Shown: one piece after another, positions 51,569 to 54,190 of the stretch | Layout: each line of letters opens with the position of its first letter | Position numbering within the stretch: position 1 is the stretch's first letter | NCBI GenBank assembly: GCA_001823065.1 | Contig: MHTJ01000003.1 | Location: 181,460-245,459, forward strand | Length of the DNA stretch: 64,000 bases | Reading direction: 5' to 3' | Origin: Candidatus Vogelbacteria bacterium RIFOXYD1_FULL_44_32 | GTDB lineage: Bacteria; Patescibacteriota; Minisyncoccia; Phycocordibacterales; XYD1-FULL-46-19 | Notes under the pieces: generated by a model | The model's input: only the letters and a program-made list of their open reading frames with translations | What the model was told of the DNA's origin: nothing | Databases searched by the model: none | Translations under genes and position numbers: made by a program

Positions 51569-52345
51569 CTAATTATTAGGTAAATTTTTAAAATCTCCGC
51601 TAGTCAGAATATAAATCAAGAGAATAAAACATACAATAGAAACAATTATTAAACTTATAATCCCTACATTAATTGATAGAATAATTAATAATAATAGATA
51701 AATTATTTGGGTAAATTGTGACCATTTTTTTCTTTTTACAATGCCTATTATTGTTATGATCGAAATAATTAACGAAAATATAATACTAACGAAAATCAAT
51801 AACGGATATAATTCGATACCATATCTAAAACTATAAGTCATCATCGATAAAGCCATAATTAATGAAAATATAAAAAACCAGACATCTAAAACTAAAATTG
51901 CTTTAGCCCCTTTAGGTATGCCGGCATAGGTGGGTATATTTTCACCTATTTTTTCTGCTGTAAATAAACCCCAAAGTAGACATATTAAAGAAATTAATAC
52001 AGAGAATCCGATAAATGGCCAAACAACAAAAATAGCAAGAAATCCACCGCCAAACTCACTAGAGTTAATAATCAATATTGAGAGGAAAGATCCTACAAAA
52101 GACAACCAACAAAACACCATGGAAAGTTTATAGGATAATTTATCAAATTGGATATCAGAAAATAATGCCAGGGAGTATATAATTGTAAAAAAAATCAATA
52201 ATGCCAGGGGAATATTTATATTTGGATTTTCCAGCCACCTCGGTACTGGCTGGGAATGTCCAATAATCTCATAAATAATAGACAAGATAAGTAAAACAGC
52301 AACCAAAAGATAATTAAACAAAAAATTTATTTTACTTTTTAACAT
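51569..52345 (-). CDS. Polytopic membrane protein, very AT-rich (about 28% GC), hypothetical
   Basis: Seven to eight hydrophobic helices. The start was moved to the internal Met (MLKSKINF...), because the listed N-terminus overlaps tRNA-Ala. Confidence 0.55.
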   Translation of the reverse strand: MLKSKINFLFNYLLVAVLLILSIIYEIIGHSQPVPRWLENPNINIPLALLIFFTIIYSLALFSDIQFDKLSYKLSMVFCWLSFVGSFLSILIINSSEFGGGFLAIFVVWPFIGFSVLISLICLLWGLFTAEKIGENIPTYAGIPKGAKAILVLDVWFFIFSLIMALSMMTYSFRYGIELYPLLIFVSIIFSLIISIITIIGIVKRKKWSQFTQIIYLLLLIILSINVGIISLIIVSIVCFILLIYILTSGDFKNLPNN

Positions 52346-52362
52346 ATTTTTTATGTTTCTCT

Positions 52363-52438
52363 TGGTGGACCCTATCGGATTCGAACCGATGACCTCCTCA
52401 TTGCAAATGAGGCGCTCTACCAACTAAGCTAAGGGCCC
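52363..52438 (-). tRNA. tRNA-Ala (anticodon UGC), CCA encoded
   Basis: The reverse complement reads GGGCCCTTAGCTTAGTTGGTAGAGCGCCTCATTTGCAATGAGGAGGTCATCGGTTCGAATCCGATAGGGTCCACCA. Confidence 0.85.
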
Positions 52439-52478
52439 AATTTAATTATAAACCTTTATAATACATCATTTTTAATAC

Positions 52479-52618
52479 CTGGCGCCTCATTTGGCAAATG
52501 AGTGTCACAAGTATTTTTCTGCTGAAAAATCTCGCGACCCCACCTCGCGCCGTCGCGCTCCGGTCTTGCACTTGGGTCCCACCCCAAGCTCACTCTACCA
52601 ACTAAGCTAAGGGCCCAA
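52479..52618 (-). pseudogene. tRNA-derived fragment/pseudo-tRNA upstream of tRNA-Ala(UGC)
   Basis: 52593-52618 is an exact 26-nt copy of the tRNA 5' end (acceptor plus D-arm), followed by an anticodon-arm-like hairpin TTGGG-GTGGGAC-CCCAA. There is no T-arm or 3' acceptor. The internal helix GATTTTTC/GAAAAATAC resembles the E1/E2 core helix. Confidence 0.4.
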
Positions 52619-52683
52619 CTTTTAACCTACACATATTAGCAATCTCGTATTGAAAAATCAATCCTGTTTGGTAGAATTGGGAT

Positions 52684-52998
52684 ATGAAAATATTTAAAGA
52701 ATTTAAAGAGTTTGCTACACGGGGGAACGTGGTGGACCTAGCTATTGGTGTCGTGATTGGCGCTTCGTTTAGCTCTATTACCAATTCTTTGGTGACTGAT
52801 ATTATTAACCCACTACTTGGTTTAGTTACCAACAAAGTAGACCTATCTGAACAGGCGATTGTCTTGCAACAAGCGGGAGCTAGTTCTACCCCCGTCATCT
52901 TGGGCTATGGCAACTTTTTGAGCAATGTTTTAAATTTTTTGATCATTTCTTTCGTTTTATTTTTGGTGATAAAACGGGTTAACAAATTGGCTAAGTAG
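52684..52998 (+). CDS. mscL: Large-conductance mechanosensitive channel
   Basis: MKIFKEFKEFATRGNVVDLAIGVVIGASF... is collinear with E. coli MscL. 104 aa. Confidence 0.9.
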   Translation: MKIFKEFKEFATRGNVVDLAIGVVIGASFSSITNSLVTDIINPLLGLVTNKVDLSEQAIVLQQAGASSTPVILGYGNFLSNVLNFLIISFVLFLVIKRVNKLAK

Positions 52999-53059
52999 TT
53001 GGTTGGGGATATTGTGCCTATTTACAAATAGCTAGATATATATTACTATCTTGGCTGGC

Positions 53060-53315
53060 GTTGATTTGGTCTTGTTTTGTTCCCGCACCGCGGGGGAAGG
53101 ATTTATATGGAGGTTGATATAAGCTCGGAGGGTGGTCAGATGGCTCAACCAGATCTCTCTGGCCACCAAAAAAGTACTCTGGCCTGGCTATTTCACCAGG
53201 TCACAGGTCAATTGGTGGGGCGTCTACATTCAGAGGTCCCACCCCCAGCAGATTGACGACAACTCATATGAGCTGTCGGCAAAAAGCCCCGGACACCCGG
53301 GGCTTTTCTTTTTTC
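53060..53315 (+). ncRNA. Candidate structured RNA or riboswitch-like leader with its own terminator, between mscL and the ABC exporter operon
   Basis: At least four hairpins: GGTGGTCAGA...TCTGGCCACC, GGTCAAT..GTGGGG/CCCCAC..ATTGAC, CGACAACTCATATGAGCTGTCG, and the terminator AAAAAGCCCCGG-acac-CCGGGGCTTTTCTTTTTTC. The overlapping 80-aa ORF is unconvincing. Confidence 0.3.
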
Positions 53316-53407
53316 AATATTTTAGCTATACTCATTTGGTTACTATTTCGATAGTTATTCTCCTCGGGTTTTAGGTCGCCGTTGGTGCGATTATATTCAT
53401 TATTTAA

Positions 53408-54190
53408 ATGAAATTATTTTTTTCTGTTGTTAAATTCAATTGGTTAAAAATCCTTGCTTATCCATTTGAAATAATTGCTTTTTTTGCTTGCCGACTTATT
53501 GCCTTGGGCATGTTGGCTTTGTTTTGGTATGCCTTTGCTCAAAGCACTGGTGGGACCATGGATTTTAAACCACTAGTGGCTTATTTTTTGGTTGCGGCGG
53601 CTATAAAGGATCTTACTTTTTCCACCGATTTTAAGTTTGGCCGTTATATTCAAAAAATAATTATGCAGGGTGAAATAAGTAATTATTTTATTAAACCAGT
53701 TAAAACCGTTCCATTTTTATTTTTTTCCTATGCTGGCGAAAATGGTATGGGTATAGTTTATGCTTTTATATCTCTTACTATTGGCTTAGTGGTTTTGCCG
53801 CCAGCTAGTTGGGTTAATATTTTAGCTTTTATAATATTTCTTTTTATTGCTCTTTTTGTATCGGTGGCCTTCAATACTTTAATTGGCATTATTAGTTTTC
53901 ATTCCACCGAGGGGTCGGGTTTTCGCAACGCAATTAATCATGTCATTAAAATACTATCGGGAGCAATTATACCCCTGACTTTGTTTCCGATTGGTATAAG
54001 GGAAATTATTTTACTTTTGCCATTTCCGGCACTAGTGTTTACCCCAGCCTATGTTTTGCAAAATAATTTGAGTGGTGGAGAAATGTTCTTTACTTTTAGT
54101 GTGTCGCTTGGCTGGGCTATTGTTTTGTTTTTCTTGACTCATTATTTATGGCGTTATTCTGTAAAAAAATATGAAGGAGTTGGTATCTAA
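53408..54190 (+). CDS. ABC-2 family transporter permease
   Basis: Six TM. The operon is shared with a second permease and an ABC ATPase, with overlapping start/stop. Confidence 0.6.
   Translation: MKLFFSVVKFNWLKILAYPFEIIAFFACRLIALGMLALFWYAFAQSTGGTMDFKPLVAYFLVAAAIKDLTFSTDFKFGRYIQKIIMQGEISNYFIKPVKTVPFLFFSYAGENGMGIVYAFISLTIGLVVLPPASWVNILAFIIFLFIALFVSVAFNTLIGIISFHSTEGSGFRNAINHVIKILSGAIIPLTLFPIGIREIILLLPFPALVFTPAYVLQNNLSGGEMFFTFSVSLGWAIVLFFLTHYLWRYSVKKYEGVGI

Follow-up and report, generated by a model that had tools for sequence, protein, structure and literature searches.

The window considered here comprises 64,000 nucleotides (nt) of Candidatus Vogelbacteria bacterium RIFOXYD1_FULL_44_32 (GenBank assembly GCA_001823065.1, contig MHTJ01000003.1, positions 181,460 to 245,459 of the forward strand). 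The element under study is the intergenic unit at positions 53021–53314, located between mscL and the genes of an ABC-2 exporter. This self-contained unit, of about 260 nt, is probably a lineage-restricted small gene, specifying a peptide of 44–49 residues on a structured messenger RNA (mRNA), a reading held with moderate confidence. Judging from the contigs compared, its distribution is most likely confined to a narrow set of Vogelbacteria-like bacteria.

The MscL protein of the window, with 104 amino acids (aa), ends just past its second transmembrane segment, and the usual C-terminal helix is absent; its sequence is identical to that of an MscL in public records for this organism, a Parcubacteria/CPR bacterium (CPR, candidate phyla radiation). 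On the 3' side of the element the exporter operon encodes two ABC2_membrane_6 permeases and an ABC ATPase (Pfam), the ATG of the first permease being at 53408. The G+C content of the element is 53–55%, versus 30–42% in the flanking genes and 43.5% over the whole window. Several ENA, JGI and Logan assemblies also contain the locus with 100% identity. The features of the region, in which ORF denotes an open reading frame and UTR an untranslated region, are the following:

52684–52998, forward strand: mscL, 104 aa (Pfam MscL, 1.4e-34, profile positions 1–97 of 123)
53021–53049, forward strand: sigma-70-type promoter TTTACA-17-TACTAT (9/12 in a consensus scan)
53056–53106, forward strand: 5' leader of about 50 nt, carrying hairpin H1
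53081–53095, forward strand: hairpin H1, UCCCGC-ACC-GCGGGG, its 3' arm entering the purine tract
53092–53101, forward strand: purine tract GGGGGAAGGA, 5 nt upstream of the ATG at 53107
53107–53256, forward strand: small ORF of 49 codons plus TGA, peptide MEVDISSEGGQMAQPDLSGHQKSTLAWLFHQVTGQLVGRLHSEVPPPAD, recognised by coding signatures
53131–53167, 53180–53203 and 53214–53243, forward strand: hairpins inside the small ORF (predicted fold)
53257–53278, forward strand: 3'-UTR hairpin CGACAACUCA-UA-UGAGCUGUCG, directly past the stop codon
53282–53314, forward strand: intrinsic terminator AAAAGCCCCGG-ACAC-CCGGGGCUUUU followed by UUUUCUUUUUU (terminator scan)

A first-pass annotation of this stretch had described several hairpins and a terminator between mscL and the permease, and both were confirmed: five hairpins are present, from 53081–53095 to 53257–53278, and the terminator lies 93–100 nt before the permease ATG. 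The promoter and the 49-codon ORF had been missed. An ORF of 80 aa had been given as the only one in the region; this was not the case, as a second ORF (49 aa from the ATG at 53107, or 59 aa if a TTG start is used) lies in another frame.

Conservation of the element beside mscL

The element was found directly 3' of mscL in the window and in contigs L001, L014, L015 and L016 (four distinct related contigs). Comparisons of its sequence were based on four distinct sequences that represent three lineages, namely the window, L001, and L014 with L015. In L001 both MscL and the permease are 96% identical to those of the window, and a recognisable homologue of the element follows mscL. Identity of MscL to that of the window is 88% in L014 and 83% in L015 and L016, and in these contigs (two distinct sequences) the next gene after the element belongs to the Transgly_assoc family (GlsB/YmgE-type). 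Contig L017 (MscL 65% identical) ends about 65 nt into the probable 5' end of the element, likewise after mscL. In the comparative alignment the structured unit is thus conserved in relatives, downstream of mscL.

The exporter operons of L002 and L007–L011 (permease identity 63–72%) directly follow another gene, with a gap of at most about 10 nt, and no structured element was found upstream of them. What the element accompanies is mscL, not the exporter: it stays with the former, and relatives of the latter lack it, which removes the basis for an exporter-dedicated riboswitch or attenuator, one of the functions first proposed for the region. No element was found at the more distant mscL loci L047, L048 and L051–L053, with gaps of 46–145 nt, and the 390-nt gap after mscL in L050 holds a frameshifted mscL 3' end, not the element. 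A short MscL (104–107 aa) is encoded in all contigs bearing the element, and longer MscL relatives (119–138 aa) are without it, a correlation that is confounded by phylogeny.

No second copy of the element was found in the window or in about 50 loci (short-word BLAST and nhmmer profile), and paralogous copies or a mobile repeat were ruled out on this basis. A metagenome scan with the pattern TCCCGCNNNGCGGGGGAAN{6,20}TATGG returned 29 loci, all of them chance matches on unrelated, mostly high-G+C contigs; the scan did not return the window's own sequence, which is apparently absent from that collection. The ORF-pattern scan of viral contigs gave only two chance matches, both in one high-G+C phage.

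The host genome looks largely leaderless and without Shine-Dalgarno sites, to judge from the long ORFs of the window. A Shine-Dalgarno-like motif precedes 3 of the 42, compared with a background of 12%, and a −10-like hexamer ends 4–10 nt before the first ATG in 13 of the 42, compared with a background of 5.9%. These hexamers are often TGnTATAAT-like, as at the starts 7727, 21511, 33526, 35415, 46764 and 48072. Two candidate −10 boxes, TATACT (53327–53332) and TATATT (53392–53397), lie between the terminator and the permease ATG, and candidate −10 boxes occur past the terminator in both downstream contexts (ABC-2 and Transgly_assoc). Since a −10 box near the ATG is the usual arrangement in this genome, the exporter operon is probably transcribed from its own promoter. 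The 100-nt spacer at 53308–53407 is 96% identical to L001, compared with a divergence of 15–36% at the third codon positions of the flanking genes; being conserved beyond these, it likely holds the exporter's own promoter or leader.

The probable transcription unit and its small ORF

The promoter is near-consensus and is the sole site in 64 kb that matches TTKACA-N17-TAYWAT. Its 29 nt, spacer included, have no changes in L001, one in L015 and four in L014, and the conservation of the spacer is a hint of regulation. The H1 stem is invariant in the four sequences, with a loop that varies (ACC, ACG, GCG, GUG). The U-run at 53075–53081 is able to extend the H1 stem over AAGGA, and pairing of this U-run with GGAAGGA was seen in the fold. 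A stable hairpin follows the stop codon in the fold of every lineage, the sequences being unrelated. The terminator is a strong one, with a stem of 11 bp, with 7 G-C pairs, and the loop ACAC; its 3' arm and U-tract CCGGGGCTTTTCTTTT are invariant in the four sequences, and its 5' arm differs yet still pairs. It is bidirectional in the window lineage only.

According to these features, the −35/−10 promoter right after the mscL stop would start a transcript near 53056 with a 50-nt leader, in which H1 and the upstream U-run would partly cover the GGAAGGA tract and may tune initiation. The ORF at 53107–53256 would be translated into an acidic peptide, and a hairpin and then the terminator would close the transcript. 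The terminator would probably also end mscL transcripts or read-through, because none was found between the mscL stop at 52998 and the promoter.

Several tests point to translation of the small ORF. Its length is 49, 44, 49 and 45 codons in the window, L001, L014 and L015, respectively, with a common ATG in the context UAUGGRGG. The stop codons fall in the same columns in the window (TGA) and in L014 and L015 (TAA), and one codon earlier in L001 (TAG), an alignment that holds despite strong divergence just upstream. The segments from the ATG to the alignment anchor measure 42/39/39/27 nt, and further segments 24/15/24 nt, so that differences within the ORF are 3, 9 and 12 nt, all multiples of 3. 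Outside the ORF the indels of the leader are mostly of 1–4 nt and seldom divisible by three (three of 1 nt and one of 4 nt, next to one of 3 nt), and the largest indel past the stop is 7 nt. The probability that all indels of the ORF are in frame by chance, with three or four independent events, is estimated by us at about 0.01–0.04.

Codon usage was scored as log-odds trained on the 42 long ORFs of the window. Frame 0 obtained +14.2, +10.1, +19.6 and +18.0 bits in the four sequences, with 49-codon windows of real genes at +17.3 ± 8.7 bits; four of the five other frames were negative in every sequence, and one reverse frame gave +1 to +5 bits in L001, L014 and L015. Compared with stop-free shuffles, the log-odds had P values of 0.014, 0.044 and 0.002. 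An RNAcode-like score, in which the BLOSUM value expected from the number of codon differences is subtracted from the observed one, was positive in frame 0 only (z = 2.4 for the window against L001; 1.0, 0.7 and 1.3 for the others), and three leucine codons are retained via CTN-to-TTG changes. A column-shuffle test of amino-acid similarity was not used, as it is confounded by identity blocks and by the protein-guided alignment. In the frame of the 80-aa ORF no start is conserved; the frame extends across the terminator, and its scores are those of out-of-frame sequence. Conservation as protein therefore did not hold for the ORF first noted, and it is the overlapping 49-codon ORF that carries the coding signatures.

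The acidic product would begin with a disordered stretch, form an amphipathic helix over roughly residues 19–43 and end in a tail rich in proline. Its net charge in the window is about −4, with no hydrophobic span, and single-sequence AlphaFold2 modelled a helix at residues 19–43 with a predicted local distance difference test score of 94–96. The peptide would act by protein–protein or membrane-surface contact in an envelope or osmotic-stress setting, a setting suggested only by its neighbours MscL and Transgly_assoc.

A number of observations weigh against a translated small gene. The comparison covers just three independent lineages. The peptide is only 35–39% identical between lineages whose MscL proteins are 83–88% identical. 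Between the window and L001, codon positions 1/2/3 of the ORF differ by 25/14/34%, compared with 6/2/36% in mscL. There is no synonymous enrichment in the ORF. The high divergence at positions 1 and 2 means that purifying selection on the peptide is weak. All four sequences also have a second open frame, of 80–86 codons, and an open frame is therefore little evidence by itself. As Shine-Dalgarno sites are hardly used here and many mRNAs appear to be leaderless, the purine tract carries little weight, and a structured leader of 50 nt is atypical for an mRNA of this genome. The whole RNA folds significantly better than shuffles. At 53180–53203 a double change from G-C to U-A, together with G-U/G-C switches, preserves the hairpin, and these compensatory changes cost the replacements W>L, Q>K and V>A. 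No homologue of the peptide was detected among 5.8 billion clustered proteins, nor any match in searches of Pfam (E ≤ 10), NCBIfam, PHROGs, PADLOC and PDB; a search without word index against 1.84 billion representatives returned just the peptide itself and FG-GAP proteins.

Homology to the FG-GAP proteins was rejected: the best phmmer value (E = 6.5e-11) is a score summed over 4–5 repeats, each stretch is weak (pairwise E of about 0.002), and a single blade-like match of 26 residues does not amount to homology. A split-off C-terminal domain of MscL was likewise discarded, since a tblastn search of the four elements with 120 MscL proteins yielded no significant match (the lowest E was 0.003, in a 1.6-kb database). 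A type I toxin mRNA is not supported, because the peptide is acidic and without a hydrophobic span and no conserved antisense promoter–terminator unit was found.

RNA structure and alternative readings of the unit

The 266 nt at 53050–53315 fold at −112 kcal/mol, compared with −87 ± 5 kcal/mol for dinucleotide shuffles (z = −5.0; 0 of 200 as good), and the minus strand of the element has a fold z of −3.9. These values bear on the alternative that survives best, unlikely but still to be reckoned with, in which the unit yields a clade-specific structured RNA of about 260 nt from its own promoter, either non-coding or with two functions, whose ORF is incidental or secondary and which would act via conserved single-stranded and hairpin segments. 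The ORF segment alone also folds better than shuffles in the window (z = −2.9) and in L001 (z = −4.0), but in L014 its z of −1.3 is not significant. Besides the invariant H1 stem, the hairpin at 53180–53203 and the post-stop hairpin persist, as does the hairpin at 53214–53243, which starts with GGUG and is maintained with different partner sequences; against this, the hairpin at 53131–53167 is without its 3' arm in L001. Identity between the window and L001 is 89% in the promoter and leader and 90% in the ORF core, and only 48–68% in the rest of the ORF, so that promoter and leader are conserved better than most of the ORF. The mostly leaderless mRNAs of the genome and the lack of protein homologues of the peptide also suit an RNA function.

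On the other side, the in-frame indels, the aligned stops, the frame-0 codon periodicity and the substitution scores argue for translation. The covariation term of RNAalifold is small (−3.5 kcal/mol with four sequences), the consensus keeps only three short hairpins, and no Rfam family matched. At the gathering threshold Rfam found just tRNAs in the window. Permissive scans of 52440–53420 and of L001, L014, L015 and L017 gave only sub-threshold matches driven by the terminator (best score 25.6 bits against a gathering value of 106). The Rfam comparison suggested by the first-pass annotation therefore assigned no family at either stringency. Its proposal of an independent small RNA (sRNA) stood in part: the unit of about 260 nt does have its own promoter and terminator, but a pure sRNA is not favoured, as the coding signatures of the 49-codon ORF make a small mRNA likelier. 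We read the RNA-level signals as those of an mRNA with selected local structure.

As an observation apart, the segment that comprises the 3' end of the ORF, the post-stop hairpin and the terminator loop (53227–53300, corresponding to 2592–2665 of L001) has an identity of only about 48% when the window is compared with L001. It is a locally hypervariable or recombined patch, in which the L001 version is nearer to L014.

A bolder reading, to which a rather low probability is given, combines both kinds of constraint: a clade-specific RNA with hairpins selected at the expense of amino acids, together with a helical peptide that occurs only alongside a C-terminally truncated MscL. It would make the unit a new dual-function RNA of CPR bacteria or a detached accessory subunit of MscL.

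The possibility that the small ORF is the leader peptide of an attenuator, whose translation decides whether the terminator at 53282–53314 forms or the downstream gene is reached by read-through, is doubtful. The order of elements would suit it, since promoter, short ORF, hairpins and terminator are followed 66–100 nt on by a co-oriented gene in both contexts; so would an ORF that looks translated yet is poorly constrained in sequence. GGGGC at 53217–53221 is a candidate partner of GCCCC in the 5' arm of the terminator, but RNAalifold found no anti-terminator pairing conserved across lineages, and the 5' arm varies between lineages without a matching upstream change. Matches to Phe_leader in L001 were sub-threshold (27 bits against a gathering value of 55, E of about 0.6–0.8) and rest on the terminator. 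Moreover, the downstream genes are unrelated, and both contexts have the candidate −10 boxes past the terminator. Exporter orthologues elsewhere do without the leader, no run of regulatory codons was found, and a separate stable hairpin stands between the stop codon and the terminator.

It is very improbable that the unit is a functionless, decaying remnant, either a pseudogene fragment or a split-off C-terminal part of mscL. The short MscL of the window, the occurrence of the element only with short MscL proteins and the fast evolution of the ORF would be expected of such a remnant, but the promoter, H1 and the 3' arm of the terminator are conserved well above the level of third codon positions. 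The tblastn comparison with MscL, as said, was not significant, and all three lineages have kept the frame with its start and stop. Close to refuted is the idea that the unit senses a ligand as a riboswitch or similar cis-regulator of the ABC-2 exporter, for which nothing speaks but its place before the exporter and its strong secondary structure. No Rfam family matched at gathering or E-value thresholds, the element is absent before seven relatives of the exporter operon and present before an unrelated gene in L014–L016, and the candidate aptamer region is not conserved even in L001 (48–68% identity, with only 48% at 53227–53281, and hairpin arms deleted).

Relation to known systems and neighbouring elements

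Under the favoured reading of a small gene on a structured mRNA, the closest parallel in how the unit works is found in orphan small-protein genes of bacteria, whose mRNAs are monocistronic and structured. The unit shares with genes of this kind (fewer than 50 codons) its own promoter and terminator, a length of 44–49 codons, a narrow distribution, fast peptide evolution, a single predicted amphipathic helix and envelope- or stress-related neighbours. It differs from them in that no family can be assigned, in that the peptide is acidic, not hydrophobic like most characterised membrane small proteins, and in that the host otherwise appears to favour leaderless, Shine-Dalgarno-free mRNAs.

The dual-function RNAs SgrS/SgrT, RNAIII/hld and SR1/SR1P are similar in being short transcripts with a small ORF and apparently compensated hairpins, whereas the element here has no known target or target-pairing region and no Rfam homology, and its covariation comes from three lineages. 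The gene order in the window (promoter, ORF, hairpins, terminator, ABC genes) is like that of bmrB-bmrCD of Bacillus subtilis and of the leaders of amino-acid operons. Here, however, the element goes with mscL, different genes can follow it, these have candidate promoters of their own, and no conserved anti-terminator was found. The U-run upstream of H1, which can pair with GGAAGGA before the ATG, is reminiscent of thermometers of the fourU and ROSE types; the core of H1 has five G-C pairs and one G-U, six in all, and is too stable for physiological melting, no Rfam thermometer family matched, and the use of Shine-Dalgarno sites is doubtful here.

Among established RNAs, that of the signal recognition particle (SRP) was considered because ACCAGGUCA...AGCAG resembles domain IV of 4.5S RNA. 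It was rejected, as no SRP match appeared even at E ≤ 10 and L001 does not conserve the AGCAG side. For 6S RNA, transfer-messenger RNA (tmRNA) and RNase P there was neither an Rfam match nor a fitting architecture. In a search of the literature on small RNAs of CPR bacteria nothing relevant was found.

Very little has been charted of the small proteins and regulatory RNAs in CPR bacteria, which so far cannot be grown on their own. The unit is a specific candidate for a small protein or RNA linked to stress, with a tryptic peptide, STLAWLFHQVTGQLVGR, and a defined transcript. For annotation, the lesson is not to take a hairpin-rich, terminator-ended island before a transporter for a riboswitch, and to begin with tests of synteny and reading frame. 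The result corrects a tempting riboswitch call, and it opens no new class.

Upstream of mscL, a structured element derived from tRNA-Ala was observed in the window (52441–52622, minus strand), in L001 (269–445) and in L014 (about 305–485). It lies directly upstream of the real tRNA-Ala(UGC) gene, at 52363–52438 in the window. Its first 25 nt or so correspond to the acceptor and D arm of the tRNA; next come a G+C-rich insert that has three hairpins in about 105 nt and then a degenerate anticodon arm (CUCAUUUGCCAAAUGAG), and the T arm and the 3' acceptor strand are lacking. Mean column identity in the window, L001 and L014 is 89%, and between the window and L001 identity reaches 92% along 177 nt, which is conservation far beyond that of the third codon positions of mscL (36% diverged between the same two). 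The fold z is −4.1. No match to this element was found in Rfam or among viral contigs. As a candidate non-coding RNA it may be of greater interest than the region after mscL.

The position and orientation of the tRNA-Ala gene differ between contigs. In L014 (486–562) and L015 (2–102) it is on the same strand as mscL and immediately upstream of it; in the corresponding region of the window (52363–52683) the tRNA and its upstream element are inverted, and in L001 they are about 1.5 kb away. The upstream boundary of mscL is thus a rearrangement breakpoint.

A very A+T-rich ORF for a membrane protein is located at 51569–52423 on the minus strand, with 20–33% G+C and no Pfam match, and its base composition is sharply unlike that of the adjoining genes. 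As listed it has 284 aa from a TTG and overlaps the tRNA-Ala gene; public gene calls give a version of 258 aa. In the unrelated contig L050 (420–600), the MscL of 102 aa is apparently a full-length gene broken by a stop or frameshift, and the typical C-terminal sequence of MscL (…EERLLMEIRDLLRERN) goes on in the DNA downstream.

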